Source: an uncultured bacterium (lineage in GTDB: Bacteria; Hydrothermota; UBA3072). Taken from it: a DNA stretch of 64,000 nt. Location: contig CAZKVT010000004.1 of the NCBI GenBank assembly GCA_964556365.1, positions 13,842 through 77,841 of the forward strand, read 5' to 3'. Below, in pieces: positions 163 to 53,513 of the stretch (position 1 is its first letter; the number at the start of each line of letters is the position of its first letter). Position numbers and translations under genes: made by a program. The notes under the pieces are model-generated. The model was not told the DNA's origin. It worked only from the letters and a program-made list of their open reading frames with translations, and did not search any database.

Positions 163-194
163 TTAAACTCGAAGAAAAAAAATCGGAGGATTTT

Positions 195-16345: not shown

Positions 16346-16358
16346 TTTAAAACTCCTT

Positions 16359-32332: not shown

Positions 32333-32377
32333 CTAACTTTACACTTTTGTCCCGGACAAAAGTGTAAAGTTAGGGGA
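32333..32377. repeat. 45-bp palindromic element, copy 1
   Basis: Identical to 33280-33324; an inverted repeat with arms ctaactttacacttttgt / acaaaagtgtaaagttag. Confidence 0.9.
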
Positions 32378-33236
32378 GAGATTTGATGTTTTGGTGGATT
32401 GTTTGACGGGATAAATGAAGTAAATCTGCTATTTCGGTTATTGAGTTGCCGTTTGATATTAATTGTTCTATTAGATATTTTCTTGCTTTCTTTTCTTCCG
32501 GGTTTTTGATTCTCGAATTTTTTCTGAACTTTTCAATCATCTGATCGAACTCTGACATTTTTCTATTAATTCTAACCGCCCTAATCTTTACTTTTTCAAT
32601 GAATCGTTTTACTTTTTGAGCATCTATGAATCTTCCGCCTTTAATTTCCAATGATTGTCTTAGAAGTTCAGAATATCTCTTTCGCGCAATATTTGGGTTA
32701 TCGTCCAGCATCTTAAGTATTTTTTCATAGTTTACAAAGGTTTTTTTTGGGCTTTCTGTGTAAAGAGAAAGAGAGCTCCACCTGTATCTATCAAAATATT
32801 CTGTTAAACCGGCATTGTAAGGATTTAAATGTATATAGCAGGAAGCTGCAAGCAAATAATTGTCGTGATTGACAAGACTTGACCGGAATCTTCCGCAGAA
32901 AACGTGCCCCTTTCGCTTATACTTATAGTTGTAATACATTGCATATTTTCCGAAAAGTTCCTTCATTGCTTCGGATAGATTTCTTTCTTTTATCTGAAGG
33001 AGAAGATGGAGGTGATTTTCTAGAAGGGAAAAACAGAAAAGATTTAAATGAAATTTTTCAACCGTTTTTTTTAATTCTGAAAGGAATTTAAGATAGTCGC
33101 CGTTTTCCACAAAAACAATTTCTCTACCGGGTGCCCTCTGAGTTATATGGTATACTGCTCCTGGATACACGATCCTTTTTTTGACAGTTAAATAGCCGCT
33201 GATTTCCTGGGTTCTAATTTTCTCCAGTATTCTCAT
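32370..33236 (-). CDS. IS200/IS605-like (RAYT-type) HUH tyrosine transposase with a C-terminal helix-turn-helix
   Basis: The HUH motif HLHLLL, a catalytic Tyr in YIHLNPY, and VYHITQR near the N-terminus resemble the Y1 transposase (Transposase_17) family. C-terminal HTH (NSITEIADLLHLSRQTIHQNIK). Flanked by identical palindromes. Confidence 0.65.
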   Translation of the reverse strand: MRILEKIRTQEISGYLTVKKRIVYPGAVYHITQRAPGREIVFVENGDYLKFLSELKKTVEKFHLNLFCFSLLENHLHLLLQIKERNLSEAMKELFGKYAMYYNYKYKRKGHVFCGRFRSSLVNHDNYLLAASCYIHLNPYNAGLTEYFDRYRWSSLSLYTESPKKTFVNYEKILKMLDDNPNIARKRYSELLRQSLEIKGGRFIDAQKVKRFIEKVKIRAVRINRKMSEFDQMIEKFRKNSRIKNPEEKKARKYLIEQLISNGNSITEIADLLHLSRQTIHQNIKSLP

Positions 33237-33632: not shown

Positions 33633-33727
33633 AGTTTCCTCCTTTTTGTTTATTTAATTATAATTATAGAGGAAAATTAGTCAAGCCACCCCCTTGACTA
33701 CTGGGGGTTTCCCTGTTAGTATTGACT

Positions 33728-34456
33728 ATGTCACTTACAAAGAAATTGATATTATCCAGTTTAAGAAAAACAGGAGTGAGCTATTTTACTATTTCGGATA
33801 TATGTTCTTTATTCGATATATCCCATAATTATGCTTCTCAAATGGTATTTCAGCTCAAGATGGACGAGAAAATAGAAGAAATAGAAAAAGGTAAGTACAC
33901 GCTGCCCGAAGGAGCGGAATATCCGTTTCTGATTGCTTCTAAAACTGTACAACCTTCATATATATCTTTTGATACAGCTTTATCTGTATATATGAAGAGA
34001 AAAACCACAAAGGATGAAATTTATTATGTTGCCACACCTAAGAGGAAAAGACCTATAGCATTTAAGAACTATAATTTCAAGTACATTACACTAAAACCGT
34101 ATAAATTTTTCGGTTTCTGTCAGTTTAATATTAATGGGAATAGAGTAGCGATGGCTGAAATAGAAAAAGCGCTCTTGGATTGCCTGGAAGAAACAGCCTA
34201 TGGTCCCGGACTTATAAAATTTAAGATCATTTTGGAAGAACTCATCGATTATATATCGATAAAAAAGTTAATACAATACGCGGTCAGATGTCATAATAAA
34301 AGTTTACTGGCACGATTAGGTTATGTGCTTGAAGATATAGGTGTCGATGTTCAGATACAGAAAAAATATCTTCCTAAAGATTACGTAAAGTTTGATCCTT
34401 CCGGCGATAGACAGGGTAAATGGATCGCCAAGTGGAACATTATCGATAATCTATAA
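33728..34456 (+). CDS. Orphan AbiEi-like (type IV TA antitoxin family) transcriptional regulator
   Basis: The PSYISFDTALSVY motif, characteristic of the AbiEi_4 domain, and an N-terminal winged-helix-like region. No adjacent AbiEii partner. The start may be TTG at 33722 or ATG at 33728. Confidence 0.45.
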   Translation: MSLTKKLILSSLRKTGVSYFTISDICSLFDISHNYASQMVFQLKMDEKIEEIEKGKYTLPEGAEYPFLIASKTVQPSYISFDTALSVYMKRKTTKDEIYYVATPKRKRPIAFKNYNFKYITLKPYKFFGFCQFNINGNRVAMAEIEKALLDCLEETAYGPGLIKFKIILEELIDYISIKKLIQYAVRCHNKSLLARLGYVLEDIGVDVQIQKKYLPKDYVKFDPSGDRQGKWIAKWNIIDNL

Positions 34457-34706: not shown

Positions 34707-34735
34707 TTGACAAAAGGTGTAAAAATCCGTAGAAT
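34707..34735 (+). promoter_or_regulatory. Strong sigma70-type promoter (TTGACA-17-TAGAAT) for the giant surface-protein operon
   Basis: -35 at 34707-34712 and -10 at 34730-34735; an AGGAGG RBS at 34786-34791 before the ATG at 34799. Confidence 0.5.
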
Positions 34736-34798
34736 GATTTAAGAACGAGTTATAAATATTTTTCATAAAATTGTAATTTAAAATTGTAAGGAGGAATT

Positions 34799-37700
34799 AT
34801 GAAGGGTAGGATAGTTTTCTTAGTTGGCATTCTGATGCTAGCTTTAAGTCTCCCGGTTTTAGCTCAGTTTTCACTACGTCTGCATCCACCGCCACCAAAT
34901 CAATTAGGTATTGAAGACTTATGGTCTCTGGAAATTATAAACAATTCTGGTGAACCGCGTATGGTTTTTCTGCGGGGAGAGATTCGAGAATCTGGAAATG
35001 ATGTATTTAGAGCTAGCACCAATGAGTTCGAGTCCCCAACGGGTAGATTGAAGGTGAAATCGAGAGATGTAAGAGATTTGAGAGATGAATGGTATAGAGA
35101 AGAAGATAAATCTTTTATACTTAGAACTGGAAGTGTCCCCGCGGGGAATTATACCGCCTGTATTTATCTTATAGATGCTTCTTCAGGACGAGAATTAGCA
35201 GAGCAGTGTATAAATATCGTGGTTCGACCAGCCAACCCACCAAGACTGATATCTCCTAAAGCCGGTAGAGGCTTAAAAGTTAATCGTCCCAATTTTACCT
35301 GGACTAAACCCGCGCCCGTACCTGCGGATGAAAGGGTCTTCTATAAATTTAAAATTGTCGAGATATATAAAGGACAAACCAAAGAAGAAGCGATGAGGTC
35401 GAATCCTGCCTGGTATCAGGAAGAGAGAATGAACAAAACAAATTTCATGTACCCTTTGAGAGCAAGAGCGCTTGATCCTGATAAACGCTATGCCTGGCAG
35501 GTTCAATCTGCTTATGAAGATGGTCTTCCTCTGGGAAGGAATCAGGGTATGAGTGAGATATGGGAAGTTAATCCCGATATAATAAAGGAAATAAAACCCT
35601 TATTAAGACCTGATTGTTTAAAAATAGGTGATTTTGTTATAAAAAATATAACTTACACATCATATTCAATGGATTCTCTTTCCGGTAGCGGAGAATCTTT
35701 CTTTGTGCAGAAGTCTGGCGGTCCGATTTTTATTTATTTGGAAATAAAATTTGATGTCGATTTTGAAAATTTGCAGGCGGATTGGACGAGCGGTGAAGAT
35801 ACCGCTTATGTTACTTCTGGTGAAATCGAAAAGAGTTTCTCTTCCCCCATCGAGTTTGGAGTCGAGGGTTATTATGTTTCAGTCTATGATATTCATATGT
35901 GGCCCGATTCGGCGCGTGGTAAAGTCGGAGTTAAGGTTAGCTGCCTTTATGATACGACCGGTTGCGAGCCGGTTGAACTCGGACCTTTTGTATCGAGACT
36001 TTCACCTATCCCGGATATTTACAAAAAACTTGAGGTCAAAGACAGAGGTCCTTTCCGTTTAGGGGAGACCGGAATAATAATTCAATCTAAGAAAGAAATA
36101 TTGGTTGATTTAAGCAAAACAATAACACCCAGCAAAGTAGGAATAGAAATGAAAAGAGGGGAAACAATCGAGCAGCCCGATATGGATACCTGTAATACAG
36201 GTTATCTTTACGGCAAATATACGTTTGATGATGGGGTGTTTGCACCGGGTGGTTTTAACGCTACTCTCGAGCTTGCCCAGCCCTGGAAATTCTATTCTTT
36301 AATTCCGATGGGGTTCGAAGTAAACTTGACGGCAGGAGGACTCGAAATCGAAAATTGTAAAGTAAAAAAAGGAAAGTTCATAAACGGAAATATAGTTCTT
36401 CCCTCGGATAGCAATGGGGTTGTTAACCCGGTGGGCAATGAAATTACATCAGGATATGATTCGCTCCTTGTAGATTCCCTTTTGGATTTACGAGCTGCGG
36501 TTAAAGTGCCCAGTGAAATGAAATGGGGTGGTTTTGGATTACGTGCAAGCAATACATATTTTAAACTTCCTGCCAAACCCTACGCTTATCATACGGTTGT
36601 ACAGAGTGATACTTTTAATCTTGTAAGACCGGATACTTTGATAGGTTTAATTGTGCCTTGCCTAAAAAGAGATACTGATGTATTGACAGCTTATTCGGGC
36701 GACGCAAGCAATCCTTTGAGATTTAAGGAAATGAGTTCGTGTGAAAATGCTAACTTGCAGGTTAAAGCGCCTAGTAAAGTAAAAAAGAATCAAGGTTGGT
36801 TTAATCTGGAAATGCAGGGGATGAGAGGGTTTTTATCGTCGGATGTCGAAACTCCGGATATGAATGTTGATCTCGGGATACCAAGTAAAACAGGATATTT
36901 GGCGAGTACTTCTTTTAATACGACTTTTACTCATGTTGACGGCCTGGAACCCTTCATGAGATTCTGGTTTGTGGGTAATTCTTCATTTAATACCGATCTC
37001 AGAGGAAACTTTCAGATTCCTTATCCATCGGATATAAAACCTCCGTTTAAGGAACTTGGCGTTACTTCTACCGCTAGTTTCGCGGGAGGTAACGCATTCT
37101 TCCCGGATGATACACTTAATCTCAATTATTGGGGTGTTGGTTTGACTTCGGAGAGAGGTGTCGTTAGTGTAAGGATAGGAGAAATTATTTATACAAATGC
37201 CGAGATTCATGAGCCCGTACATTTCAGCCAAGGGTTTAATATAATCTGGGGTGAAATGCTCGCCGACGGAAATTTGGGAGAGTTTTATTTCAACCACAAC
37301 GCGGCGCATCAGAAGTTTGACGGTTTCCCGATTACTTTGGATTCGGCTGCTCTTTCTAAATTTACTTCTGGTAAGCCGGGAGAACTTGTAGTTAGAGCCG
37401 GTATTCACTTTAATTTCTTCGGAGAGCCCGATACATTGATTACTGTGCATGACGCGAAACATACTGTATCCGGAGCGCCTTTCTACTCGCGCCTCATTTC
37501 CATAGACCCAAAGGATTTTGCACTATTTAGAAACTGGGGTTCGGGTATCGCGGAAATGGATTTTGATAAGATTGGTTACGATGACGCGGATCAAAATGGG
37601 TTTATAGGCTCGGGGGAAGTCGATTTTGATTTCTTTGCGAATTCTCCGGTCGATGCCGAGATTGAACTTGATAGTTTGTATATAAAAATTTGTGTTTTAG

Positions 37701-38638
37701 AAAACAGTGTGCATGATTTAATGCTTCTGGATGTCGAGTTGACCAGTTTGGGTGAAATCTGGGGATGTGCTGTCATCAAAGGAGATGAGCTGGAACGTAT
37801 CGTGATTGGCGGTCGAATCGAATCGACCGTGGGGGGTGGTTTCGATTTACTTGTTCCTAAAGCTGGAGTAGGAGTCGAAGTCAAGATGGCGGTTACCCCG
37901 AATATAACAACTTTTGCCGCTGATGGTATGATGTATCTCTATGTCCTTGGAACCGATTTGGAAATGACAGGCAGCGTATTTCTTAAGTCTGACCGTGTTG
38001 CGGGAAGCGTAGAAGGCGAAATAAAAGGAGCTTTCGATTTGAGTTCTGTAGGTGTAGATCTTGAGGCGGATGGGCAGGCTAACTGGTTCTTTAGCGGCGA
38101 TGCAAATTACATACAGGGAAGATTGGCAGTGAATATATGCAGTATAACATTGGGAGGCGGTCTTTCGGGTGGTCTGTTCATAGGGTACAATGCTCCTAAG
38201 GATCAGGTATGGGTCATTACAGAGGGGAGCAGCGGAAGCCGGCGGTTTGGTATTAATATGGCTAATATAAATGACCCTGTAAGTGGTATTTATATCTTTG
38301 GCGATGCCGAAATATCTATAGGGGTGGCTGGAATACTCGAAGGCGGAGTTGAAATATATGCAGGTGTTGGAGCCTTCATAGGTGGCAATTATACCGGCAG
38401 TGACGGAACTACTCAGGGACTTTTCACTATTGTAGGGGTAGTTGGAGTTTACATATACGGCGAAATACTCTGGGGTCTTGTTTCCGCGTCAGCCTGGGGA
38501 GAATTAGAGATTTATTTTGGAACCCCGACAGGATTCGAGGGCACTTTTGGTCTTAGAGGATGTGTGCTCTGGGTTGTTTGCGGCGAAATAGATATTACTG
38601 CAGGAATGAACTCAAACCGTGGCTTCTACGTAGAGTAA
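34799..38638 (+). CDS. Giant secreted protein (1279 aa) of unknown function: N-terminal Ig/FN3-like domains and a Gly-rich beta-rich C-terminal region
   Basis: Signal peptide MKGRIVFLVGILMLALSLPVLA; FN3-like segments (NFTWTKPAP ... YKFKIVEI ... YAWQVQSAY); no catalytic motif recognised; the C-terminal 250 aa is rich in G/V/I/Y beta-strand-like repeats. Confidence 0.6.
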   Translation: MKGRIVFLVGILMLALSLPVLAQFSLRLHPPPPNQLGIEDLWSLEIINNSGEPRMVFLRGEIRESGNDVFRASTNEFESPTGRLKVKSRDVRDLRDEWYREEDKSFILRTGSVPAGNYTACIYLIDASSGRELAEQCINIVVRPANPPRLISPKAGRGLKVNRPNFTWTKPAPVPADERVFYKFKIVEIYKGQTKEEAMRSNPAWYQEERMNKTNFMYPLRARALDPDKRYAWQVQSAYEDGLPLGRNQGMSEIWEVNPDIIKEIKPLLRPDCLKIGDFVIKNITYTSYSMDSLSGSGESFFVQKSGGPIFIYLEIKFDVDFENLQADWTSGEDTAYVTSGEIEKSFSSPIEFGVEGYYVSVYDIHMWPDSARGKVGVKVSCLYDTTGCEPVELGPFVSRLSPIPDIYKKLEVKDRGPFRLGETGIIIQSKKEILVDLSKTITPSKVGIEMKRGETIEQPDMDTCNTGYLYGKYTFDDGVFAPGGFNATLELAQPWKFYSLIPMGFEVNLTAGGLEIENCKVKKGKFINGNIVLPSDSNGVVNPVGNEITSGYDSLLVDSLLDLRAAVKVPSEMKWGGFGLRASNTYFKLPAKPYAYHTVVQSDTFNLVRPDTLIGLIVPCLKRDTDVLTAYSGDASNPLRFKEMSSCENANLQVKAPSKVKKNQGWFNLEMQGMRGFLSSDVETPDMNVDLGIPSKTGYLASTSFNTTFTHVDGLEPFMRFWFVGNSSFNTDLRGNFQIPYPSDIKPPFKELGVTSTASFAGGNAFFPDDTLNLNYWGVGLTSERGVVSVRIGEIIYTNAEIHEPVHFSQGFNIIWGEMLADGNLGEFYFNHNAAHQKFDGFPITLDSAALSKFTSGKPGELVVRAGIHFNFFGEPDTLITVHDAKHTVSGAPFYSRLISIDPKDFALFRNWGSGIAEMDFDKIGYDDADQNGFIGSGEVDFDFFANSPVDAEIELDSLYIKICVLENSVHDLMLLDVELTSLGEIWGCAVIKGDELERIVIGGRIESTVGGGFDLLVPKAGVGVEVKMAVTPNITTFAADGMMYLYVLGTDLEMTGSVFLKSDRVAGSVEGEIKGAFDLSSVGVDLEADGQANWFFSGDANYIQGRLAVNICSITLGGGLSGGLFIGYNAPKDQVWVITEGSSGSRRFGINMANINDPVSGIYIFGDAEISIGVAGILEGGVEIYAGVGAFIGGNYTGSDGTTQGLFTIVGVVGVYIYGEILWGLVSASAWGELEIYFGTPTGFEGTFGLRGCVLWVVCGEIDITAGMNSNRGFYVE

Positions 38639-38648
38639 GGAGGTATCG

Positions 38649-41600
38649 ATGTTTTTAATAATATTATTGGGAACTGTATTGAATGTTTACACAAACGATG
38701 TGGTGGTTAAAAGAGCTGATACCACTATTACTCCTACCATAGGTATGGAATTAAAGGATATCGATACAGTCATAGTTGGAGATAGTTCTAAAGCAGAGAT
38801 TCTTTATTCCGACAGCACAACGCTTTACCTGGATGCGAATACCAGTATTAATACAAGAGGAGAGAAGAAAAGGTCTGTATTTCTTTCCTTTGGAAGAATC
38901 TGGGCAAAGGTCAAAAAGCTTGTGAAAGGCGAATCTCTGGAAGTTGTAACTCCTGTTTCTATTTCCGGTATTACAGGTACGGAGTTCGAACAATCTTTTA
39001 TCGCGAAAAAAGTAGAGTGTAAGATGATAGGAGGAAGTTTAAACTTCAAAGAAAAGGGGACCGGAAAAGAGACAAAGCTGGGAGAGGGTCAGATGGCCTC
39101 TATGGAAAAAGGAAAATCAGCAAAATTTGGAAAATTCAAAAGGGACCAGGTGAAACACTGGTATAAATGGACAAAAAACGACGCTGATTTTATCCTCAGT
39201 AAAATAAAACAAGCCTCTGACGATGGTGAGCATGGAGATGGCTTGATCTCTGACGATGGTGCGCATGGAGATGGCTTGATCTCTGACGATGGTGAGCATG
39301 GAAAGGTAGCACTTCTTGTCTCTCAGGTAAAGGCAGTTGCCGGCAAATTGGGTTTAGTTGGAGAGTATAATAGCAAATTAGATAAATTTATGAAAGTTAA
39401 AGATCCTTCTATGCTCAAAGGCCTTTTTGCCCCTACCGAGACAGGTTTTCTTTATGCTATAAGCAGTGAAAATAAAGGTAAAAATACATTCATATTGTTG
39501 AAATGGCCTAAAATGGAAGGGGTTAAATCCTTTAACCTTTATAGGAAAGAGATACCGTCTATTTCTGTTTCTACGAAACCGATAAATTCAAAACCTATTC
39601 AACTTATGACTGACTGTGATGATATTAAGAAAATTATACCTGAAGGTTCCGAAGAATGGCAGGCCATTGTCAATATCCTTAACGGACCTCCAAAACTTAA
39701 ATTTAAAGCCGGCGTAAAAGGAAATATGATTAAGGGTTCTCCTATTGTAGCTCTTAAGAGCACGGGTAAAGATATGCTTGCCGCCGTTCCGACCGTTCCG
39801 CAGGTTGGGTTCGCTAATCTTGGTGCCTGTAATATTTCCTCTGTTTCGGATACCAGCAAGACTTATAGAGAATTACAGGCTCTTACAGGTAAATACTGGA
39901 AGGTTGGTGTTGTCATGGGACAGGCTTATGTTGATAATAATGTTGTTGTTGGTAAAAAATATATGTATGCAATAACACCCGCTAAAACACCCGCTAAGCG
40001 TAAGGGGGCAAGCATGGAAATTAAACCCATAGATACAGCCACGGTTATTGCCGGAACGGTTCTTCCTTTACCTCCTCCCTCGGGTGTTACTACTATTGCG
40101 GGTGATAACAAGGTTATGGTAAGATGGAATGAGATGGGAACCGCTTCGGGTTATGATGTTTATAGAAATGCTCTTACCTCGCTTTATATTAAGGTAAACG
40201 GAGCCGATATAGTAGAGAAATGTACTCTCGATTTAGAAGGAAATAAGATTTCTGAGAAAAACTGTTTTATAGATTTTATGCGCTGGGATGGATCGGGCTA
40301 TCCTGCAGAGCATGAAGTTGTGGCTCCTGACTCGATATATGGGCCATATAACGGAATAACTTACAGATATAAAGTTAGAGCTTATGATGCTCTTGGTAGA
40401 CCGGGTATGTTCAGTTCGAATGTTCCCACACTTCCCGAGGATAAAACACCGCCGGCTGTGCCTTATGGAATTACCGTCGAAGCTTATCCTGACGGCTTAC
40501 AGCCGAAATGGTATCAGGTTACTCATGATGAATTAGGACACGTGGAATTGTCGGGTATACAGGGCTATAAGGTTTATCGTTTTAACTCCGCGGATTCTTT
40601 GGCTGATAGTATTATGATTAATCCTATGATTCCTGATACGTTTGGAGCTTTCCCTTTCTTTAAGGATACGGACCCGGCGATTTTCTCCGCGTATGGAGAA
40701 AAAACATACTGGTACAGGGTTAGAAGTATCGATAACGAAGGTAATATAAGCGGTCTTTCTCCTTCAGCAGGAAACAATTTACCGGATACAACACCTCCGA
40801 CCCCTCCGCGCGATTTAGTGGCAAAGAGTCATGCAGACCATATTGCATTAACCTGGGAAAAACCGAATCCTGTTCCGTCCGATCTTGCGGGTTATAATAT
40901 ATATAGAGGGGTTTGCGGAGGAGATTCTGTATGTGTTGAGTATGAACAACAAAAGGCAACAACCCATATGCCGACGGGTGATCCAAGATGTACAAAATGG
41001 GAATGGCAACCTTATCCCACGCACCTTGTGGGAAATAGAGATCATCCCGATAGTCTTAAATATAATGATTTCACTGTTCCGCCCGGTTCTCCTATCTGTT
41101 ACAGATATACTATAAAAGCTTATGATAGGAGTCAGAATCTAAGCGATACCTCAAAGAGTGTTTGTCAGAAACTAAGAGAAGAAACACCTCCCGCTCCACC
41201 CGTTATAGCAGGGCTTAAAGCGAGAGACAGATCGATAAAAGTCGAGTGGGTTTCTTCCCCTGTTCAGGATTTATTTGGATTTATGGTTTATAGAGCGGAG
41301 AAAGAAAGTGGTCATTACAAGAGAGTAAGTGATACGCTTATATTCCCTGAAAAGATAGATTGCAAAGATATCCCGGCTACGAATGTATGGGCGGCTGATT
41401 CTGTATTTTCATTTGTCGATACAACCGTACAGGAAAAGAAGGTGTATTGGTATAAAATAAAAGCCGCGGATTACGGTGGAAATATAGGAGAAGCTTCTGT
41501 TCCGATAGAAACGTATACATATAATATCGGGCCTCCGCCTACACCAAAGAATCTTCAGGTTACTCAGCCTTCAGGTAAATGCGCTTTACTTATAGAATGG

Positions 41601-41819
41601 AAGCCGGAGTACGATAAAGATTACAAAGGTTTTGTAGTGTTCAGAAGTTCTGAGCTTAGCAAGGGTTATCGGCAGATCAGTCCTATCGTAAAAGATAGTA
41701 GGTATCTCGATAATACGGTAATCGGGAATAAAGACTACTACTACAAGGTTCAGTATTTTGCTAAAAATGGAAACCGATCGCTCGTTTCAACTGCTAAAAA
41801 CGGTAAGGCAACGCCTTAA
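38649..41819 (+). CDS. Large secreted protein (1056 aa) with a FecR-like N-terminal domain, an 11-aa tandem repeat linker and at least six fibronectin type III domains
   Basis: A FecR-like beta-rich domain (aa ~40-130; GDSSKAEILYSDSTTLYLDANTSI ... GITGTEFEQSF); the repeat SDDGEHGDGLI x2.6; FN3 units each opening with PPxP linkers and closing with YxYRVxAxDxxGNxS-type strands (YRYKVRAYDALGRPG, YWYRVRSIDNEGNIS, YRYTIKAYDRSQNLS, YWYKIKAADYGGNIG, YYYKVQYFAKNGNRS). AAGGAGG RBS. Confidence 0.65.
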   Translation: MFLIILLGTVLNVYTNDVVVKRADTTITPTIGMELKDIDTVIVGDSSKAEILYSDSTTLYLDANTSINTRGEKKRSVFLSFGRIWAKVKKLVKGESLEVVTPVSISGITGTEFEQSFIAKKVECKMIGGSLNFKEKGTGKETKLGEGQMASMEKGKSAKFGKFKRDQVKHWYKWTKNDADFILSKIKQASDDGEHGDGLISDDGAHGDGLISDDGEHGKVALLVSQVKAVAGKLGLVGEYNSKLDKFMKVKDPSMLKGLFAPTETGFLYAISSENKGKNTFILLKWPKMEGVKSFNLYRKEIPSISVSTKPINSKPIQLMTDCDDIKKIIPEGSEEWQAIVNILNGPPKLKFKAGVKGNMIKGSPIVALKSTGKDMLAAVPTVPQVGFANLGACNISSVSDTSKTYRELQALTGKYWKVGVVMGQAYVDNNVVVGKKYMYAITPAKTPAKRKGASMEIKPIDTATVIAGTVLPLPPPSGVTTIAGDNKVMVRWNEMGTASGYDVYRNALTSLYIKVNGADIVEKCTLDLEGNKISEKNCFIDFMRWDGSGYPAEHEVVAPDSIYGPYNGITYRYKVRAYDALGRPGMFSSNVPTLPEDKTPPAVPYGITVEAYPDGLQPKWYQVTHDELGHVELSGIQGYKVYRFNSADSLADSIMINPMIPDTFGAFPFFKDTDPAIFSAYGEKTYWYRVRSIDNEGNISGLSPSAGNNLPDTTPPTPPRDLVAKSHADHIALTWEKPNPVPSDLAGYNIYRGVCGGDSVCVEYEQQKATTHMPTGDPRCTKWEWQPYPTHLVGNRDHPDSLKYNDFTVPPGSPICYRYTIKAYDRSQNLSDTSKSVCQKLREETPPAPPVIAGLKARDRSIKVEWVSSPVQDLFGFMVYRAEKESGHYKRVSDTLIFPEKIDCKDIPATNVWAADSVFSFVDTTVQEKKVYWYKIKAADYGGNIGEASVPIETYTYNIGPPPTPKNLQVTQPSGKCALLIEWKPEYDKDYKGFVVFRSSELSKGYRQISPIVKDSRYLDNTVIGNKDYYYKVQYFAKNGNRSLVSTAKNGKATP
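39217..39302 (+). repeat. 33-bp tandem direct repeat (2.6 copies) inside the FecR/FN3 gene, encoding SDDGEHGDGLI repeats
   Basis: The unit ctgacgatggtgagcatggagatggcttgatct repeats at 39217, 39250 and 39283 (third copy partial). In-frame, period 33 nt. Confidence 0.85.
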
Positions 41820-41832
41820 AGAGGGGGATGAG

Positions 41833-43446
41833 ATGAGAAAAATAACATTAATCTTAACTTTGATAGTTGTCGTTTTCCTGGCAATTCCTTTGTTTGCTGC
41901 CGATGAGTTTATTGAAAAGCACACCTGGGGTTTTAGAAACACTACTTATTTCACCGATGGAGGTAGTACGGTACTGCCATGGGAAGTATATGTAAGAAGT
42001 TTTATCGGCATTTGTCCTGATTCGTCTACAGCCAAGGTTTTATGTCCTCTGGATTATGCTTTTTATCACGCTTACAATGCCGCGTTTGCTGTTGCTGCCG
42101 GCAATTGTTTTGGTATGAGCCTGCTTACCAACATAATTTACAAAGAAGAAGGGCATATGGGTTTTTGTAAACCTATCTATACTTATTCGGGAGGTACGGA
42201 CGGACCTACTTCGGCAAAATTATGTACTACGATAACAGTTATGCAGTGTCATGAATGGAGTCATTCAGGTATTATGTGGATGGCTGAGAATATCACCGGT
42301 CCCACCAGTAAAATAAAGAATGGTAATTATGCTTATGAGCAGGTGGAATATTATCTTTCTATGGGAGATCTGCCTGTACTTACCATAGTTCAGGATATGA
42401 GTTTTGTCGGGCATACATTGGTTCCTTACCGAGTGGAAGATAATGGTTCAAAGAGATATATTTATATACACGATTCAAACAAATGGATTCCTAATCGTCA
42501 GGATTATTACGATAGCGACAGCAATTATATCGAAATTACCAAAAGCAATGGTAACTGGTCTTACGTGTGGGATGCTGCGGAAACCTGGGGCTCTCCGGAT
42601 GGTTTTATTTTTGCTACGCCTATGTCAGTAGTAAAAGCGTCTTCGCGTAATCCCCTGCAGCTCGGTGGAATTACTGATGCAATGAATGATATTTTTCTTA
42701 CAGGCGCGAATATTTCTCAGATTACGGATGACGAAGGGCATAAATTTTACAAGACCAGCGCGGGTTCGCATAATAGGTTGTCAGATATAGAAGATAATCC
42801 GTCGCTTAAAATGAAAAATGTGTTCAGGATGCCTATGATTTCTGCCGCTACGAGAGGAAGAGTCAGAAGTTCCACCCGGATGAAGAATGCTCCGGAGATT
42901 TACTTCGCGTTAGGTTCCGAAGGTAAGAATCTCAATTTTGAGATTGTCTCTACCGGAAAAAAATACAAATTCGAAATGGCGGGTAAAGACAATATAATAA
43001 GGCTTTCCGCGCCCGGCGGGTCGAGCGGAAAAGATAATTTCGAGGTAAAGAAACTTTCAACGAATAATCAAGAATTAAAATTGAGCAGCAGAAGGGGAAC
43101 GGCAAAGTTTGAGGTGGAATTACATCGGAGTGTCCCTGGTTCGGATATATCCAGAGTATTCAAAGTTACAAATCTTACGGCTCCCAGTTCTTCGCCTGTG
43201 AAACTACGTTTGTCTGAGGGGCGGGATGCTCTTCTTGTAAAGGGAGAAAAAAATGCCGTTAGTTGTAATCTTGCAATCACACAGGTTGTAGACGGAAAGA
43301 TAACAAAGATGCCGCCCAGGACATTAAACGTTTCCGGTAAAGAGTGGCAGCAGGTAGCTCCCAGCAACTGGAATAAGTTAAACGGCGCGACTATAAAAAC
43401 GAATAGAATACAGATGCCTCCGGATCCTCCTCTGAAAAAGAGATAA
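41833..43446 (+). CDS. Secreted papain-like / peptidase C39-like putative cysteine peptidase
   Basis: Signal peptide MRKITLILTLIVVVFLAIPLFA. Candidate catalytic triad: Cys in AAGNCFGMSLL, His in SFVGHTLVPYRV, Asp in YIYIHDSN, in the order and spacing of C39-like domains. A GAGGGGGA RBS precedes the ATG at 41833. The track start at 41758 overlaps the upstream gene. Confidence 0.4.
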   Translation: MRKITLILTLIVVVFLAIPLFAADEFIEKHTWGFRNTTYFTDGGSTVLPWEVYVRSFIGICPDSSTAKVLCPLDYAFYHAYNAAFAVAAGNCFGMSLLTNIIYKEEGHMGFCKPIYTYSGGTDGPTSAKLCTTITVMQCHEWSHSGIMWMAENITGPTSKIKNGNYAYEQVEYYLSMGDLPVLTIVQDMSFVGHTLVPYRVEDNGSKRYIYIHDSNKWIPNRQDYYDSDSNYIEITKSNGNWSYVWDAAETWGSPDGFIFATPMSVVKASSRNPLQLGGITDAMNDIFLTGANISQITDDEGHKFYKTSAGSHNRLSDIEDNPSLKMKNVFRMPMISAATRGRVRSSTRMKNAPEIYFALGSEGKNLNFEIVSTGKKYKFEMAGKDNIIRLSAPGGSSGKDNFEVKKLSTNNQELKLSSRRGTAKFEVELHRSVPGSDISRVFKVTNLTAPSSSPVKLRLSEGRDALLVKGEKNAVSCNLAITQVVDGKITKMPPRTLNVSGKEWQQVAPSNWNKLNGATIKTNRIQMPPDPPLKKR

Positions 43447-43461
43447 ATTGGCGGGAAACTT

Positions 43462-45111
43462 ATGATAAAAAAGATAACATTAATCCTTTTCTTTGTATCG
43501 CTTGTTTTTTATGCGTCTGACATCGTCGAATTTTCCGGGTCGGCGGGTTTGTACGGAGAATATGATTATATAGACGGAGATACTACAATGGAACCGACTT
43601 CGCAAGTCCGGTTTAACGTAAGCCCTACAATATCTTTTTATAAAATGCCTATTAGTTTTGATTTCCAGCTAAGTTCTCTGGAATCGCAATACCGTCAGGC
43701 GCTCAATAAATATCGTATCAGCATACAACCGGAAAAAATGTTGAGGGATAAGGTCAATCTTCCGAGTTTTGTTTTTACTATTTCAAATGTGGAATTCGGG
43801 ACCTGTTATCCTTCTTTTTCCCCCTACACTCTTTCGGGTGTACCTGTTTCCGGAGGGGTAGTCGAACTTAACCCCGGGATTTTTCACATGGAAGGGACAA
43901 AGGGAAAACTTCAGAGAAGTGTCGACTGGTCAGATACGACTTATACCGACTACGCGTATGAGAGGAATTTAACTGCTTTTAGTGTAGGGTTCGGAAAAAA
44001 AGAAGCGCCGCACCTTCATTTTATTTACATGCATTCGGGGGACGATACATCTTCCGTGGATCCTTTATTTTTGCCCGCTTACAGTGATTCCGATAGTGTA
44101 GAAATTGTGAAACCAAAGGAAAATTATGTTGTAGGTATCGATTTTAGATTGGATTTTCTTGAAGAGGGGTTTTATATAGAATCTGAGATTGTTGGTACGG
44201 AAGTGACGAGAGATGTTCGTATGCCCGCGCTTAGTTATGAGGACGTCCCGTCCTTTCTTACAGATTTATTTAAGCCCAGATTAAGCAGCGCTTTTGATGT
44301 AGCGTTTAACGTTAACTCGGGGCTAAATATTTACGATACCGAAATTTACGGTTCTGTAAATATGGCGGGCCCAGGATTCGAGTCTTTCGGAAATCCTTAC
44401 CTGCGTAATGACTTTTTAGGATATGAAGCGGGAATAAAACAAAACTTTTTTAGTAAAAGTATGTTTCTTTACGGTTCATTGGCAAACGACAGGGATAATC
44501 TTTTGGGTATGAAAGGTTCTACAACTGCGTTTAATTCGTTTGAATTAGGTGTAGGATTTAATTTTACAAATTTACCGTACCTGGATTTTTCTTACACACC
44601 TTATAGCGAAATAAATGATTCCCTGGGCCTGGATAGAAGCAGTGATATGTACTCTGTTAATACCGGTTACGATATTAATGTTTCCGATATAACTAATTAT
44701 ATAAGTTTTTTCTTTTCTTTCCAGGATTACGAAGATACTTATGACGTAAACAATTATACTGCCAAAGCATATTCTATTAGCGATGAGGTAAGTTTTGCTA
44801 TGCCTCTTAGCTTATCTTTCTCTATGGATTACTCCGAGTCCAGTTTTCCGGATTTGAAAGAGAGCATTACAACTTATGATTTAGGAGCTAATTATACGTT
44901 TTTTGATAACTGGACGAACGGTATCGGGTTCAGTGTTTCATCCGGTTCGGATAATGTTTCAGGAAACAGTATATATTTAAATTCTTCCCTATATGCGGGA
45001 CGATTCATGAATTTAGGATTGGATATAGAGCGCAATGTTTATAACGGAGAATTCGAATATGAGGATTATAATGAATGGCGTATAATGGGAAGCATTTCGA
45101 GTAGCTGGTAG
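43462..45111 (+). CDS. Predicted outer-membrane beta-barrel protein, 549 aa
   Basis: Signal peptide; alternating hydrophobic / aromatic-rich strands throughout; C-terminal aromatic residue (…RIMGSISSSW); abundant Y/F/N/S/D loops. Confidence 0.45.
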   Translation: MIKKITLILFFVSLVFYASDIVEFSGSAGLYGEYDYIDGDTTMEPTSQVRFNVSPTISFYKMPISFDFQLSSLESQYRQALNKYRISIQPEKMLRDKVNLPSFVFTISNVEFGTCYPSFSPYTLSGVPVSGGVVELNPGIFHMEGTKGKLQRSVDWSDTTYTDYAYERNLTAFSVGFGKKEAPHLHFIYMHSGDDTSSVDPLFLPAYSDSDSVEIVKPKENYVVGIDFRLDFLEEGFYIESEIVGTEVTRDVRMPALSYEDVPSFLTDLFKPRLSSAFDVAFNVNSGLNIYDTEIYGSVNMAGPGFESFGNPYLRNDFLGYEAGIKQNFFSKSMFLYGSLANDRDNLLGMKGSTTAFNSFELGVGFNFTNLPYLDFSYTPYSEINDSLGLDRSSDMYSVNTGYDINVSDITNYISFFFSFQDYEDTYDVNNYTAKAYSISDEVSFAMPLSLSFSMDYSESSFPDLKESITTYDLGANYTFFDNWTNGIGFSVSSGSDNVSGNSIYLNSSLYAGRFMNLGLDIERNVYNGEFEYEDYNEWRIMGSISSSW

Positions 45112-45123
45112 TATTTAAAAAAC

Positions 45124-45882
45124 ATGAAGAAAAAGAAAATATTAATAATCGAAGATGATTATGACCTTTCGGCTTTGATGATAAGACATCTTCAGTCGGC
45201 AGGGTATGATGTCTTGAATGTTGGAGATGCCATACAGGGAGTGCAGTTCGCGAGAAAGGAAATCCCCGATTTGATTATTCTCGATTTGAATATACCTGGG
45301 GGAGGTGGGCTGAAAGTTCTGGAAAATGTTAACAGTTTACCGGAAACGCAAGGTATTCCCGTTATAGTTCTTACCGGCGTGCATGATATCGATACAAAAG
45401 AGAAGGCTCTTGCCGCGGGAGCTACAGAGTATTTAGAAAAGCCTTACAATCCGCAGGAGTTATTGGGAAGAATTGAGGAATATCTAATAGAACCCGAGAA
45501 AGGAGAGGAAGAAGGAGGGAGCGCTGGAAATATATTGATTGTCGATGACGATGTGGATTTCGTGAAAAAGCTATCGCTGGATCTGCATAGAGCGAATTTT
45601 TCGACCTCTGTCGCTTATGATGTAGATCAGGGAATGAGACTCGCGCGGGAAAAAGAACCGGATTTAATTATTATCGACTTATTACTCCCGGGTGGGGGAG
45701 GTTTTACCTTTTATAAACATCTTAAAGGTTTAGCTTACACGCAAAACATACCTGTTATAGTTTTGACCGCCTTGAAAGATGAAAAATACAAAAAGGAAAT
45801 GTTCGAAGCGGGGGTTAAATATTATATCGAAAAACCTTACGATTTGAGTTTGTTATTGAATGCGATCGAGGTTGCTCTCTAA
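45124..45882 (+). CDS. Tandem-receiver (REC-REC) response regulator with no output domain
   Basis: Two complete CheY-like domains. REC1: IIEDDYD, phospho-acceptor in LIILDLNIPGGGG, VIVLTG, EKPY. REC2: IVDDDVD, LIIIDLLLPGGGG, VIVLTAL, EKPY. Joined by an acidic/Gly linker. Confidence 0.8.
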   Translation: MKKKKILIIEDDYDLSALMIRHLQSAGYDVLNVGDAIQGVQFARKEIPDLIILDLNIPGGGGLKVLENVNSLPETQGIPVIVLTGVHDIDTKEKALAAGATEYLEKPYNPQELLGRIEEYLIEPEKGEEEGGSAGNILIVDDDVDFVKKLSLDLHRANFSTSVAYDVDQGMRLAREKEPDLIIIDLLLPGGGGFTFYKHLKGLAYTQNIPVIVLTALKDEKYKKEMFEAGVKYYIEKPYDLSLLLNAIEVAL

Positions 45883-46128: not shown

Positions 46129-46899
46129 TTATCGCAGAGGCATCAGGTTATATGATAAGTTCAGTCCTATTCTTATGTTATTGGGGGAGTCTTCTTCGGT
46201 AAAGAGATGTTCAAGCTTGGTAAAGTAGAGGATTCCTTTGAGTAACACGGTTTCGTATTCAAACGCTAAATTGCCGTCTCTTCCATCTGCTTCGAGAATA
46301 ATATTTAAAGGACCGTTTAAGTTTATTTTTAGACCGCCGAAAAGACCCATTACCCAGTTTTCATGTTCTTCGTCGAAAATAACATCCGTATTAGGGAAAA
46401 AGCTTCTTGGACCGTAACCAACGAATTTTCCTCTGCCGATTCCTAAAGATATTTCAAAGTTTTTACCGAGGTCTTTCGTGGCAACTCCATAAAGAGAGGC
46501 AATTTCGGGCGGTCTGTTTTCGTAACTTTCATCGGCGTAAGTTTCTTCCGAGCCCGCCGGCGAGATAAATTTATTGAATGCCAGTTCCTGAATACCTATC
46601 GCAATAGAAGGTCTCGTTTCGTTCTGTTCTATAATTTGATATGACACGTCGAAGGCAAAATCGATTTCGTTGTACCATTTTAGAGCCATATTGAATTGGT
46701 CTTTAGTATATTCTATTCCTATATTAGGGTCGAATCCCACTTCGCTTTCACTCTTTGTCGCGAGATTCATATCCGTGTTTATAAAAAAACCATCCGTATA
46801 ATTGGCGGTTGGGATATCTATATAAGAATCATAATGTAACGTCTGGGAATTAAGAGAGATACAGCACAGGAGAAATAAGAACATAAAAAATTTTTTCAC
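46129..46899 (-). CDS. Secreted protein homologous to the N-terminal domain of the adjacent OmpA-family paralogs (no OmpA domain)
   Basis: Signal peptide. Shares YIDxPTANxT ... ISPAGSEET ... RPPEIAS ... GRGKFVGYGP ... NTDxxFDEEHENW motifs with the N-terminal halves of the 47779 and 49658 genes. GTG start at 46899 with an AAGGAGG RBS. Confidence 0.55.
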   Translation of the reverse strand: MKKFFMFLFLLCCISLNSQTLHYDSYIDIPTANYTDGFFINTDMNLATKSESEVGFDPNIGIEYTKDQFNMALKWYNEIDFAFDVSYQIIEQNETRPSIAIGIQELAFNKFISPAGSEETYADESYENRPPEIASLYGVATKDLGKNFEISLGIGRGKFVGYGPRSFFPNTDVIFDEEHENWVMGLFGGLKINLNGPLNIILEADGRDGNLAFEYETVLLKGILYFTKLEHLFTEEDSPNNIRIGLNLSYNLMPLR

Positions 46900-46987
46900 T
46901 TACAGCCTCCTTATTTGGTTTTCTTTAAAATTTACCCCCGGATTTTATGCTAGTACCCAGGACCCGGTACCTGGTGCCCAAGGCTTG

Positions 46988-47590
46988 TTATTCCCATTTG
47001 CCGAATAGAGTTACATAAAAAGAAAGAAGAACAAGTTTCGCGTCAAGCATGAAACATTGTTTTTTTATATAAAGAAGGTCATATTTAACCTTGTGCTCGG
47101 TTTTTGCTTCTTTGCTCGCGAATATCTGAGCTATTCCCGTAAGACCTGGTCTTACGGAAGTTCTCTTCGAAAAATCGGGAACTTTTTCGAGGCTTTCATA
47201 TTTACTTCCTATAATTTCAACATCCGGATGGAAAGGACGCGGACCCACAAAGCTCATATCGCCTTTAAAAATAGAAAGCAATTGAGGCAGTTCGTCCATG
47301 GCTGTAGCTCTCATTATTTTTCCGACTTTAGTTACGTGTGAATGATATTCGTCTTTATTTTTCATGGGAGCGCCGTTGTGAGTATCTTTCCCCATCGAAC
47401 GAAATTTCAAGACATAAAAGATTTTTCCGCTTTTACCCATTCGCTTTTGTTTTATAAAAATAGGTCCTCCGCTTTCCATTACAATTACGACAGCGGAAAG
47501 AGCCCAGACGGGAAGTGATAATACTAAACCGGTTCCCGAAAGTATAACGTCGCATATTCTTTTAGATATTCGCATAATATTTGAGTCCAT
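46988..47590 (-). CDS. Polyprenyl-phosphate sugar phosphotransferase (bacterial sugar transferase, WbaP/PglC C-terminal type)
   Basis: Single N-terminal TM helix, then DELPQL ... FVGPRP ... PGLTG motifs of initiating sugar transferases. The first ATG is at 47590; the track start is a TTG at 47629. Confidence 0.75.
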   Translation of the reverse strand: MDSNIMRISKRICDVILSGTGLVLSLPVWALSAVVIVMESGGPIFIKQKRMGKSGKIFYVLKFRSMGKDTHNGAPMKNKDEYHSHVTKVGKIMRATAMDELPQLLSIFKGDMSFVGPRPFHPDVEIIGSKYESLEKVPDFSKRTSVRPGLTGIAQIFASKEAKTEHKVKYDLLYIKKQCFMLDAKLVLLSFYVTLFGKWE

Positions 47591-47778
47591 TTTTCTTCTT
47601 TGTTTCCGTAACCTATTAATTATAAACAAGATATAAGAAAAAGCAAGCTTTTGAGGTTCTTTTCACAAAAAATTAATCACGTGTTAAGGTTTTTTATGGA
47701 TATTCCCTTAACATAATTTTTCTTTAAAGAATGTAAATTCCTGAAGTTTAAACTCTTATATAAAAAATTTAAATAAAT

Positions 47779-49233: not shown

Positions 49234-49260
49234 AGTTTATCACCCCCTTATACAAACAAT

Positions 49261-49288
49261 TTTATAGAGGATATGTCTTTTTGTCAAC
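49261..49288 (-). promoter_or_regulatory. Sigma70-type promoter (TTGACA-16-TATAAA on the minus strand) for OmpA paralog A
   Basis: -35 complement tgtcaa at 49283-49288; -10 complement tttata at 49261-49266. Confidence 0.4.
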
Positions 49289-49657
49289 CTAGATTAGAAT
49301 TTTTTTTGAAAAAAACCCATTTTACCGCAGAGACAAAAAGAACGCAGAAAAAAATTTTTAAGCCACGAAACACACTAAATCCCGCTACTCCTTTTGAATG
49401 TGTGTTTTAAAAAAAACACTAAAATAATGCTAATTCGATAATCGCGGCTGGGAAACCGCTCCCACATTTTTCTTTTTATTGTAGGAAGGATTTCTCTACC
49501 CTGTGGAATAAGAACTCAACATACAATGACTTCTATTATATTTGGAAAGTGCTGAATAAAAACGTAGGGTTGGGGTTTATTCCCAACAATCTATGTGCGA
49601 GGGATGAACCCCCGCGTTACTAATTTACGAATTTCCTGACTTGAAGAATCTATAAAG

Positions 49658-52886: not shown

Positions 52887-52948
52887 CCCAATTAATTCAT
52901 AAACTAATAGTAATAATAATTATTACTTCTGGTTTATGGTAGGTGGAT

Positions 52949-53512: not shown

Positions 53513-53513
53513 T

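Follow-up and report, generated by a model that had tools for sequence, protein, structure and literature searches.

Gene layout and promoter of the operon

The window analysed here, a stretch of 64,000 nucleotides from an uncultivated WOR-3 bacterium, contains five open reading frames (g1 to g5) on the + strand between 34799 and 45882, with intergenic gaps of 10, 13, 15 and 12 nt in order (Table 1). It was observed that AGGAGG-type ribosome-binding sites precede g1, g2 and g3. In the mechanical list of open reading frames, g3 begins earlier, at TTG 41758. The sigma-70-type site TTGACA-17-TAGAAT was the top-scoring + strand promoter site of the region. In 10/10 orthologous five-gene loci, the -35/-10 elements were located 60-82 nt before the g1 ATG, and the promoter and the ribosome-binding site were the sole invariant upstream blocks, the rest of the sequence having diverged. 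Rfam and tRNA scans of the operon region returned zero matches, and the empty Rfam scan indicated that the 63-nt 5' UTR carries no known riboswitch or leader.

These results bore out an earlier note on this DNA, which had described five co-directional genes 10-15 bp apart behind a near-consensus sigma70 promoter. The gene order was found to be conserved in related genomes, and in all orthologous loci of sufficient length the five genes sat close together as one unit behind a conserved promoter. Because the synteny recurs, the arrangement is not a product of chance. In summary, the five genes constitute a real, tightly packed operon.

Table 1. Features of the operon in window coordinates.
Feature	Position (nt)	Residues (aa)	Strand	Detail
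Promoter TTGACA-17-TAGAAT	34707..34735		+	sigma-70-type, score 11/12
g1 ORF	34799-38638	1279	+	
g1 signal peptide		1-22	+	hydrophobic N-terminal segment
g1 variable head, two Ig-like domains	34865..35569	23-257	+	weak Ig_Rha78A_N match
g1 beta-rich core	35606..37438	270-880	+	AF2 model all-beta
g1 predicted outer-membrane beta-barrel	37439..38635	~881-1279 (~400 aa)	+	
g2 ORF	38649-41819	1056	+	
g2 FecR-like domain	38763..39020	39-124	+	Pfam PF04773, E=3e-10, 40.8 bits vs cut-off 24
g2 linker tandem repeat	39215..39302		+	33 nt x 2.7 copies, encodes SDDGEHGDGLI; Tandem Repeats Finder score 169
g2 array, six FN3-like units	39450..41816	~268-1056	+	six-fold motif periodicity
g3 ORF	41833-43446	537	+	counted from ATG
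g3 catalytic domain		~24-330	+	C92 42106-42108, H194 42412-42414, D214 42472-42474
g3 C-terminal beta-sandwich domain		355-526	+	
g4 ORF	43462-45111	549	+	
g5 ORF	45124-45882	252	+	
g5 REC1	45139-45474		+	Pfam Response_reg, E=1e-48 in two stretches (with REC2)
g5 REC2	45532-45867		+	see REC1

Domain make-up of the encoded proteins

Each of the proteins g1 to g4 has a signal-like N-terminus and no further hydrophobic helix. The family of g1 comprises 35 full-length homologues at 47-90% identity and one more, 28% identical, without the N-terminal module. Across 36 family members, the core gave zero Pfam or NCBIfam matches, and the N-terminal Ig-like module alone was matched, weakly, by Ig_Rha78A_N in 34/36 members of a Pfam scan. 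The head is 39% identical to the N-terminus of otherwise unrelated GEVED/DUF928 proteins; it is swapped for FG-GAP repeats in the loci L027 and L031 and is missing altogether in L004. Such exchange between lineages is as expected for a distal, exposed part. The core is kept at 28-32% identity in distant loci. In the AF2 model (pTM 0.45, some segments of low confidence), the pLDDT was 80-94 over residues 270-600 and low over about residues 730-880. In the C-terminal region, ~24 strands were predicted, and the best structural matches were barrels of 16-26 strands; Foldseek gave local similarity to LptD and ushers, with TM-scores of only about 0.1. The protein ends in GFYVE, which is not a canonical aromatic-terminal beta-signal. 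On the basis of the model, a large outer-membrane beta-barrel is predicted at the C-terminus of g1. The signal peptide of a secreted protein without a catalytic domain, as which g1 had first been read, was recovered, and the view that it is simply secreted gave way to a predicted barrel in the C-terminal ~400 residues.

The FecR-like domain and the 11-residue tandem repeat claimed for g2 were both confirmed. The FecR domain begins at residue 39, right after the sole hydrophobic segment (residues 1-20), and also weakly matches NCBIfam LipL45 (E=3e-9); neither a cytoplasmic anti-sigma segment nor a membrane helix of the FecR anti-sigma type was detected in g2, and no sigma or TonB-dependent receptor genes were matched among the neighbours scanned. 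The DDGxHG motif encoded by the repeat occurs in 0-3 copies among g2 orthologues. The earlier note had counted six or more fibronectin-III domains. We found six regularly spaced motif pairs (W..GY.VYR and Y.Y.V.A.D), the first unit holding an insertion of ~150 residues, so the count of six stands by motif; profile support was faint or indirect, in that Pfam fn3 gave nothing above threshold on g2 of the window and faint matches in orthologues, and the NCBIfam CbhB FN3 region matched the array with E=2.6e-17. The array is 28-35% identical over ~800 residues in distant loci. Short forms of g2 found elsewhere (777-852 aa) begin with a classical signal peptide immediately ahead of the FN3 array, and the FecR head is confined to the five-gene clade.

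For g3, a C39/papain-like Cys-His-Asp arrangement had been proposed. In the structural model, C92 stands before a helix (residues 92-104), H194 lies within a strand (193-204) and D214 follows a strand (207-213). These positions are conserved in the family (Cys 132/132, His 134/135, Asp/Asn 134/136). As in clan CA, the Cys at a helix N-terminus is followed by His and Asp/Asn by strands. No Peptidase_C39 or C39_2 Pfam match was obtained for g3 (E<=0.1), for 17 relatives (E<=1) or for 54 distant relatives (E<=0.01), and by these scans of g3 and 71 relatives no profile makes it a C39 peptidase; nor did Pfam scans of the 17 close and 54 distant relatives yield a bridge to a known peptidase family. 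The C39 label was therefore dropped, and only a general, predicted papain-like fold and the triad were retained. Clustering at 50% identity divides the family into at least 557 clusters. The Cys-His-Asp/Asn set is essentially invariant, and g3 carries the motifs GNCFGMSLL, GHTxxPY and YDPN. g3 founds a putative papain-fold family not yet covered by profile models, and the number of clusters and the near-invariant triad suggest a sizeable family of extracytoplasmic cysteine hydrolases that are probably active. The fusion partners of g3 relatives are extracellular or wall-binding modules only (LGFP, Cu_amine_oxidN1, lectin, PKD, FG-GAP, FIMAH, Big_9 and TIG), which argues for an extracytoplasmic location of g3.

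The outer-membrane barrel of 549 residues claimed for g4 agrees with its sequence features: the N-terminus is signal-like, hydrophobic helices are absent, the last residue is a Trp (W549) that is nearly invariant in the family, and the protein has a composition rich in Y/F/S/N/D with 0.2% Cys, and an excess of alternating amphipathic-beta pattern (z=3.8). Support by profile was limited to one of its 57 homologues, none of them named, with a weak sub-threshold OMP_b-brl match (E=1.6e-4), and no match was found among PDB sequences. These features suggested that g4 is probably an accessory outer-membrane beta-barrel protein. A relationship between the g4 and g1 families was considered and rejected, as hhalign showed no relation. 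The description of g5 as a REC-REC protein without an output domain proved correct, since its 252 residues leave no room for such a domain. Its halves are 42% identical to each other, and the acidic/Asp/Thr/Lys set is complete in both (D11, D12, D54, T84 and K106 in REC1; D141-143, D185, T215 and K237 in REC2).

Conserved core, proposed role and alternatives

The order g1-g2-g3, with short or overlapping junctions, recurs in 17 WOR-3 loci. It was also found, between unrelated flanking genes and at 24-35% identity, in five further loci: L004, L025, L027, L030, in which the g3 protein (from a MAG) is labelled Aminicenantes by NCBI, and L031, a planctomycete-like contig with PSCyt1/PSD1/DUF1501 neighbours. 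Some MAGs contain two paralogous loci. Among the loci compared, co-inheritance of g1, g2 and g3 was strict. g4 is missing from these five loci and from L006, L022 and L023, and g5 was found solely where g2 bears the FecR head. Sequence comparison thus identifies the three-gene core g1-g2-g3 as the unit under selection, and g4, the FecR head of g2 and g5 as add-ons restricted to sub-clades of WOR-3. The proposed five-gene module accordingly holds as a tight conserved unit in the orthologous loci, and the unit conserved at depth is g1-g2-g3 only. The co-occurrence of the FecR head and REC-REC was dropped as independent evidence of coupling, because all such loci belong to one clade, so that one evolutionary event, and not functional coupling, may explain it. 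Genes with Por_Secre_tail (T9SS cargo) are frequent beside the loci and are not conserved; a functional link to them was also dropped, as they lie on either side, are mutually non-homologous and are absent from the window.

The reading that we prefer, to which we give a probability of about 35%, is that the operon encodes a complex, anchored in the outer membrane, that holds an active cysteine hydrolase in place in the envelope. g1 would leave the cytoplasm through Sec and be fixed in the outer membrane by its C-terminal barrel, presenting a beta-rich body and a lineage-variable head. g2 would be a Sec-exported rod of six FN3-like units that is made in step with g1 (the 10-nt gap is conserved) and docks on it as a stalk or scaffold, and g3 would be a Sec-exported, active papain-fold hydrolase kept on this scaffold by its C-terminal beta-sandwich. 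The complex would thereby bring a cysteine endopeptidase to the periplasm/outer-membrane/surface compartment, where the enzyme would cut a protein or peptide, be it one of its own partners, so as to mature or release it, or a target in the envelope or outside the cell. The WOR-3 sub-clade of the window would have gained three parts: g4 as a second outer-membrane protein, the FecR/LipL45-type beta-sandwich at the head of g2, and the cytoplasmic g5, which presumably makes expression or activity depend on a phosphorelay that an unlinked kinase feeds. The data show the order and spacing of the genes, the conserved promoter, the domains, the invariant triad and the distribution of the loci; the physical complex, its topology, its substrate and any connection of the FecR head with g5 are points that we infer. 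The earlier note had read the locus as a combined processing, export and signalling module. Export found no direct support, as none of the loci has an ABC transporter, a membrane-fusion protein, an ATPase or a component of the inner membrane. Signalling would rest on a FecR-like domain that lacks an anti-sigma part and on a REC-REC protein that has no nearby kinase. As a route of g2 or g3 across the outer membrane, neither a T9SS C-terminal domain nor secretion genes were found in the operon.

Several other readings were weighed. A Lap-like control, in which g1 (with g2) is an adhesin held at the outer membrane, periplasmic g3 serves only to cut g1/g2 for maturation or release, and the FecR head and REC-REC regulate the cut in the five-gene clade, would account for a giant repeat-rich protein, a papain-fold Cys-His-Asp enzyme, barrels and a regulator in one operon, for the strict co-inheritance of g1, g2 and g3, and for a head that varies in the manner of adhesins. 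However, Peptidase_C93/DUF920, T1SS genes and a c-di-GMP receptor were all unmatched, and LGFP-fused g3 relatives occur alone, without g1 or g2, indicating that a g3-type enzyme needs neither as substrate; we regard this reading as unlikely. Nutrient foraging would make g3 a surface protease on g1-g2 that digests external proteins, with the g1 and/or g4 barrels importing peptides in the PUL or RagAB manner and the FecR-like and REC domains sensing substrate. The barrel matches are generic, no TonB box, plug or STN profile match and no SusD-like partner were found, and g3 is 70-84% identical among most type-A species-level MAGs, which is high for a foraging enzyme; foraging is thus quite unlikely.

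The earlier idea of processing plus export could be recast as a new translocon, with the g1 barrel as secretion pore, g2 as cargo or periplasmic conduit and g3 as processing peptidase. A large predicted barrel does adjoin a beta-rich extension with the local Foldseek similarity to LptD and ushers noted above, and the peptidase is co-encoded in every case. This proposal appeared improbable, given the low TM-scores and the failure to find an energy source, an inner-membrane part, a recognisable cargo signal or a match to any Pfam secretion family. Similarly hard to favour is a role in wall remodelling or tethering, in which g3 would be an NlpC/P60- or CHAP-type endopeptidase acting on peptidoglycan peptide stems and g1-g2 would hold it at the interface of outer membrane and wall. 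C39-type leader processing with export of a small peptide or amyloid subunit, like bacteriocin/ABC or Fap systems, is already largely refuted and very improbable: Peptidase_C39/C39_2 was unmatched in 71 family members, no ABC or membrane-fusion gene lies in the operon or is conserved in syntenic loci, Fap subunits are absent, and gaps of 10-15 nt are too short for small-peptide genes.

No Pfam, NCBIfam or PDB relative exists for the g1 core, g3 or g4, and hence for three of the five proteins. That g3 is strictly tied to a giant barrel protein and a rod of six FN3-like units, even between distant uncultivated lineages, identifies a conserved envelope module, and to our knowledge the diderm envelope biology of these lineages is essentially unexplored. 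Defining the module would bring in a new family of enzymes and another of outer-membrane proteins, and perhaps also a novel mode of surface-protein display or processing. We also considered, as a doubtful extension, that g1-g2-g3 might form a self-contained translocation or sortase-like attachment apparatus of several uncultivated lineages; if so, the triad would be a new class of envelope system and not a version of the Lap, type V or type IX systems. We present the operon as a lead rather than a result, its function being one that we infer.

Comparison with known systems

The profile libraries and the PDB sequence search placed neither the g1 core, g3 nor g4, in agreement with the earlier statement that the architecture matches no described system. 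PDB sequence searches with g1, g2, g3, g4 and three family profiles found nothing; PADLOC defence models gave no match to g1-g4 and only generic REC-domain matches to g5; and a literature search on WOR-3 surface or secretion systems, or on this domain combination, returned no relevant paper. C39/ABC, Fap, Lap, the iron-citrate signalling system FecIRA, autotransporters and T9SS cargo all fail their defining tests, as the following comparisons show.

In the Lap system of Pseudomonas fluorescens, the adhesin LapA is accompanied by the periplasmic Cys-His-Asp protease LapG, the outer-membrane pore LapE and the signal receptor LapD. The operon is similar in that it too encodes a giant envelope protein rich in repeats together with a barrel, a regulator and a signal-peptide-bearing Cys-His-Asp enzyme of predicted papain/transglutaminase fold. 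In contrast to Lap, the operon and the neighbours scanned contain no Peptidase_C93 (DUF920), T1SS ABC/membrane-fusion genes or c-di-GMP receptor; g1 bears its own predicted barrel, and the regulator is REC-REC. The T9SS attachment complex, which consists of the sortase-like cysteine peptidase PorU, the barrels PorV/PorQ, and PorZ, likewise brings together, at the outer membrane, a cysteine peptidase, beta-barrel proteins and a large protein rich in beta structure. However, PorU is of the gingipain type (clan CD) and not papain-fold, and g1-g4 gave no Por_Secre_tail or Por-family match in Pfam or NCBIfam. Like type Va autotransporters, g1 combines a signal peptide, a beta-rich part with a variable head and a predicted C-terminal barrel in a single polypeptide, but no Autotransporter beta-domain profile of Pfam or NCBIfam matched g1 or its 35 relatives, its predicted barrel resembles barrels of 16-26 strands rather than the 12 strands of autotransporters, and obligatory FN3 and peptidase partners are foreign to type V.

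Among secreted clan-CA peptidases, g3 showed no sequence or profile relationship to C39-like enzymes, C10 (streptopain, interpain A), C47 (staphopain C) or C66 (IdeS), and it differs from them in adding a conserved beta-sandwich domain and motifs of its own. The closest comparison for g5, at the level of the REC fold, is FrzZ of Myxococcus xanthus, which has tandem CheY-like receivers and no output domain; g5 too consists of two complete receiver domains and nothing else, although no chemosensory (Che/Frz) genes lie near it. As for the FecR/FecA/FecI system, residues 39-124 of g2 match the periplasmic domain of FecR above the Pfam threshold, whereas the operon has no anti-sigma segment, membrane helix, ECF sigma gene or TonB-dependent transducer. 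Collectively, the FecR domain of g2 is nearer to the free-standing domain of the Leptospira LipL45 group than to an anti-sigma factor.

Organization of the operon and its surroundings

The five operon genes, g1 to g5, all lie on the + strand with intergenic gaps of 10, 13, 15 and 12 nt, in agreement with the earlier note, which had described five co-directional genes separated by 10-15 bp. The g3 start was taken as the ATG; the mechanical ORF list begins at a TTG further 5', overlapping g2. An AGGAGG-type ribosome-binding site was observed in front of each of g1, g2 and g3. The near-consensus sigma70 promoter proposed earlier, TTGACA-17-TAGAAT, was the top-scoring + strand candidate within the 13-kb region. 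TTGACA-16/17-TA(G/A)(A/T)AT was found 60-82 nt 5' of the g1 ATG in 10 of 10 orthologous five-gene loci with upstream sequence, and the only invariant blocks in their aligned upstream regions were the two promoter hexamers (-35 and -10) plus the ribosome-binding site. Because the same element precedes g1 in all ten loci, it is unlikely to be a chance occurrence. Rfam and tRNA scans of the operon region returned no Rfam family or tRNA. The operon was confirmed to be real and conserved.

Coordinates of the operon, its features and its surroundings in the window
Feature	Position	Strand	Description
Transglutaminase-core and right-handed beta-helix protein genes	15521-17668	-	side by side
IS200-like Y1 transposase	32370-33236	-	C-terminal helix-turn-helix domain; between housekeeping genes and operon
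AbiEi-type antitoxin gene	33722-34456	+	directly 5' of operon promoter (PADLOC AbiEi, E=7e-50)
Promoter-like element	34707-34735	+	11/12
Operon	34799-45882	+	five ORFs
g1	34799-38638	+	1279 aa
g1 Ig-like module	34865-35569		~235 aa, two domains
g2	38649-41819	+	1056 aa
g2 N-terminus	38649-38708		MFLIILLGTVLNVYT
g3	41833-43446	+	537 aa
g3 C-terminal tail	43390-43446		basic, proline-rich
g4	43462-45111	+	549 aa
g5	45124-45882	+	252 aa
YjbH-like paralogues	46129-51115	-	three; 256, 484, 485 aa
AbiE-type pieces	52943-54209	+	including AbiEii, 53514-54209
AbiE-type pieces	58720-60623	-	including AbiEi_2, 59553-60623

The G+C content of the window is ~38%, and the flanking genes are unrelated to the operon. 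The 5' flank carries the IS200-like transposase, which may account for an upstream context unlike that of the orthologous loci, and the AbiEi gene. No AbiEii toxin ORF adjoins this AbiEi gene, which looks like an orphan or remnant; with the two further AbiE-type stretches, the window has three AbiE-related loci. The 3' flank holds OmpA/YjbH-like and polysaccharide-synthesis genes. Here the N-terminal parts of the three paralogues are weakly YjbH-like, two of the three have OmpA C-terminal domains, and a Bac_transf sugar transferase gene is interleaved; they look like a tandem exopolysaccharide-related outer-membrane gene family.

Distribution and gene content of the loci

The nearest relatives are unnamed proteins of metagenome-assembled genomes (MAGs), those with an organism label almost all being 'candidate division WOR-3 bacterium'; one partial homologue carries a Phycisphaerales label. 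Conservation of the gene neighbourhood, a check proposed earlier, was assessed by tblastn of the five window proteins against 24 fetched loci and six more distant loci, and g1-g2-g3 recurred across WOR-3 and distant loci. Type A loci contain all five genes, with g2 aligning from residue 1 (the window, L002/L003, L005=L014, L008-L013, L016, L017 and L019). This type takes in every sufficiently long close locus, where g1 shares 62-79% identity with that of the window, and its g1-g2 gap is nearly constant at 10 nt. Type B loci (L001, L007 and L020) contain g1, a short g2 without FecR, g3 and g4 and lack g5, and type C loci (L006, L022 and L023) contain only g1, a short g2 and g3. The more distant L004, L025, L027, L030 and L031 carry a triad made up of the g1 core, a short form of g2, and g3, with identities of 24-35%. 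The L004 g1 has no head, and its g3 has an FG-GAP insertion with the three motifs kept; L027 and L031 have an FG-GAP head on g1 and PKD or lectin tails on g3. L031 adjoins PSCyt1/PSD1/DUF1501 genes, which we take to be planctomycete-style, and the NCBI name of the L030 g3 protein is 'Candidatus Aminicenantes'. A 1785-aa transglutaminase protein is encoded upstream in L004; the presence of transglutaminase genes both there and in the window is probably a coincidence.

The genes flanking the operon vary between loci, and g1, g2 and g3 are tightly spaced and co-inherited across a large evolutionary distance. The gene content across types A, B and C and the distant loci therefore indicated that the unit under selection is g1-g2-g3; on the same comparison, g4 is an addition in WOR-3. 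The FecR head and the REC-REC protein co-occur perfectly and are confined to one clade, which may reflect one evolutionary event. In three MAGs (L012+L022, L010+L023 and L024+L021) a type A locus occurs together with one of type C, the type C g3 being only ~35% identical to the window's; these are two diverged paralogous systems within a single genome.

Predicted properties of the encoded proteins

Export signals are present on g1-g4. The cleavable-looking signal peptide of g1 is followed by the Ig-like module, which shares 30-39% identity with the N-terminal parts of large proteins (P0078-P0086) that are otherwise unrelated to g1, several of them with GEVED and DUF928 domains. The g1 head is lineage-variable, and these matches suggest a shuffled surface-protein module. 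The remaining ~1000-aa core gave no profile match in 36 members scanned. A structure model of residues 270-1279 was all-beta (pLDDT 71, pTM 0.45), with about 24 long antiparallel strands at the C-terminal end. Foldseek placed LptD on top (E=4e-7), ahead of apolipoprotein B-100, SlpA, a porin and ushers; as the TM-scores were close to 0.1, the similarity claimed is no more than local. When strands with an alternating amphipathic pattern were looked for by a crude test, z was 2.8 for the g1 C-terminus, 2.7 for its middle and 3.8 for g4, and the result was negative for g2, g3 and g5. Collectively, the model, the local similarity and the amphipathic strands suggested that g1, earlier described as secreted, is probably an integral outer-membrane protein. 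A putative outer-membrane beta-barrel, g4 has a matching composition, a signal-like N-terminus, a nearly invariant C-terminal Trp and, in one homologue, a sub-threshold OMP_b-brl match.

For g2, the FecR-type domain previously proposed was recovered at residues 39-124 (Pfam E=3e-10, above threshold), and it also matches Leptospira LipL45. The acidic linker contains the expected repeat (33 nt x 2.7), whose DDGxHG motif occurs in 0-3 copies per orthologue. Six FN3-like units were recognized as regularly spaced motifs, with indirect profile support. No anti-sigma segment or membrane helix was found in g2, and no sigma-factor gene or sigma/anti-sigma module near the operon; g2 is thus no anti-sigma factor of the FecR type. 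The short N-terminus of type A g2 is hydrophobic without Lys or Arg, a form kept across the clade, whereas the short forms of g2 carry classical signal peptides whose n-regions are rich in Lys, making the type A export signal atypical.

A signal peptide is carried by g3, which had no match in Pfam, NCBIfam, PADLOC or PDB sequences. The AlphaFold model (42 homologues, pLDDT 74) comprised an alpha/beta domain at the N-terminus and a beta-sandwich, modelled with confidence, at the C-terminus, with Cys92 (GNCFGMSLL) at a helix start and His194 (GHTxxPY) and Asp214 (YDxN) on or after consecutive strands. An exhaustive profile search of 1.84 billion representatives yielded 557 clusters at E<=1e-3. 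Among the best 149 representatives, counting aligned ones only, the catalytic triad was conserved (Cys 132/132, His 134/135, Asp/Asn 134/136). None of 71 members scanned matched a Pfam peptidase model, so that of the suggested C39/papain-like assignment a general papain-like fold class and the Cys-His-Asp/Asn arrangement were supported and C39 was not. Every extra domain seen in g3 relatives is of an extracellular or wall-binding kind (LGFP, Cu_amine_oxidN1, lectin, PKD, FG-GAP, FIMAH, Big_9 and TIG); LGFP-fused relatives are solitary, with no g1 or g2 alongside. Given the model, the triad, the lack of peptidase-model matches and these partner domains, the description that best fits g3 is founding member of a papain-fold family, so far unmodelled, of cysteine hydrolases that are extracytoplasmic and probably active. 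Type A g3 ends in one or two copies of MPPDPLxKK, a tail found in no type B or C g3.

The REC-REC reading of g5 held: two complete receivers (Pfam E=1e-48, two stretches), 42% identical to each other and each with the acidic pair, phospho-acceptor Asp, Thr and Lys, and no output domain. The operon neighbours scanned included no histidine kinase.

Proposed working and comparison with known systems

Our general reading is an anchored hydrolase complex, held tentatively (probability about 0.35). The C-terminal barrel would insert g1 into the outer membrane, g2 would dock on it as a rigid six-domain rod, and the g3 beta-sandwich would hold g3 on this scaffold. There, in the periplasm, outer-membrane or surface compartment, g3 could work as a cysteine endopeptidase or a transpeptidase. 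Its substrate might be g1 and g2 themselves, in a Lap-like maturation or release, external proteins taken in foraging, or wall peptides, each quite improbable taken singly. Regulation by way of an unlinked kinase is probably what the FecR-type head and the tandem receiver contribute in type A loci. The processing, export and signalling module envisaged earlier was only partly borne out: the operon is conserved, but it has no ABC/T1SS genes and no visible mechanism joining the periplasmic domain to the cytoplasmic receiver.

New here are the g1-g2-g3 core and how widely it is distributed, the barrel predicted for g1, and how large and invariant the g3 family is. The folds are all of known classes, and we consider a distinct new envelope machine rather unlikely; the operon is a solid lead within unexplored lineages, with only a putative function. 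Functionally it resembles the Lap adhesin/protease system, the T9SS attachment complex, autotransporters, and Fap or C39 systems, but all four fail on the defining features tested. It lacks the C93 profile, T1SS genes and c-di-GMP receptor of Lap, the Por_Secre_tail profile of T9SS, and the C39 profile match and ABC genes of C39 systems; no autotransporter profile was matched, and the predicted g1 barrel exceeds 12 strands. The FecR and REC domains, on their profile matches, are genuine family members in non-canonical contexts.
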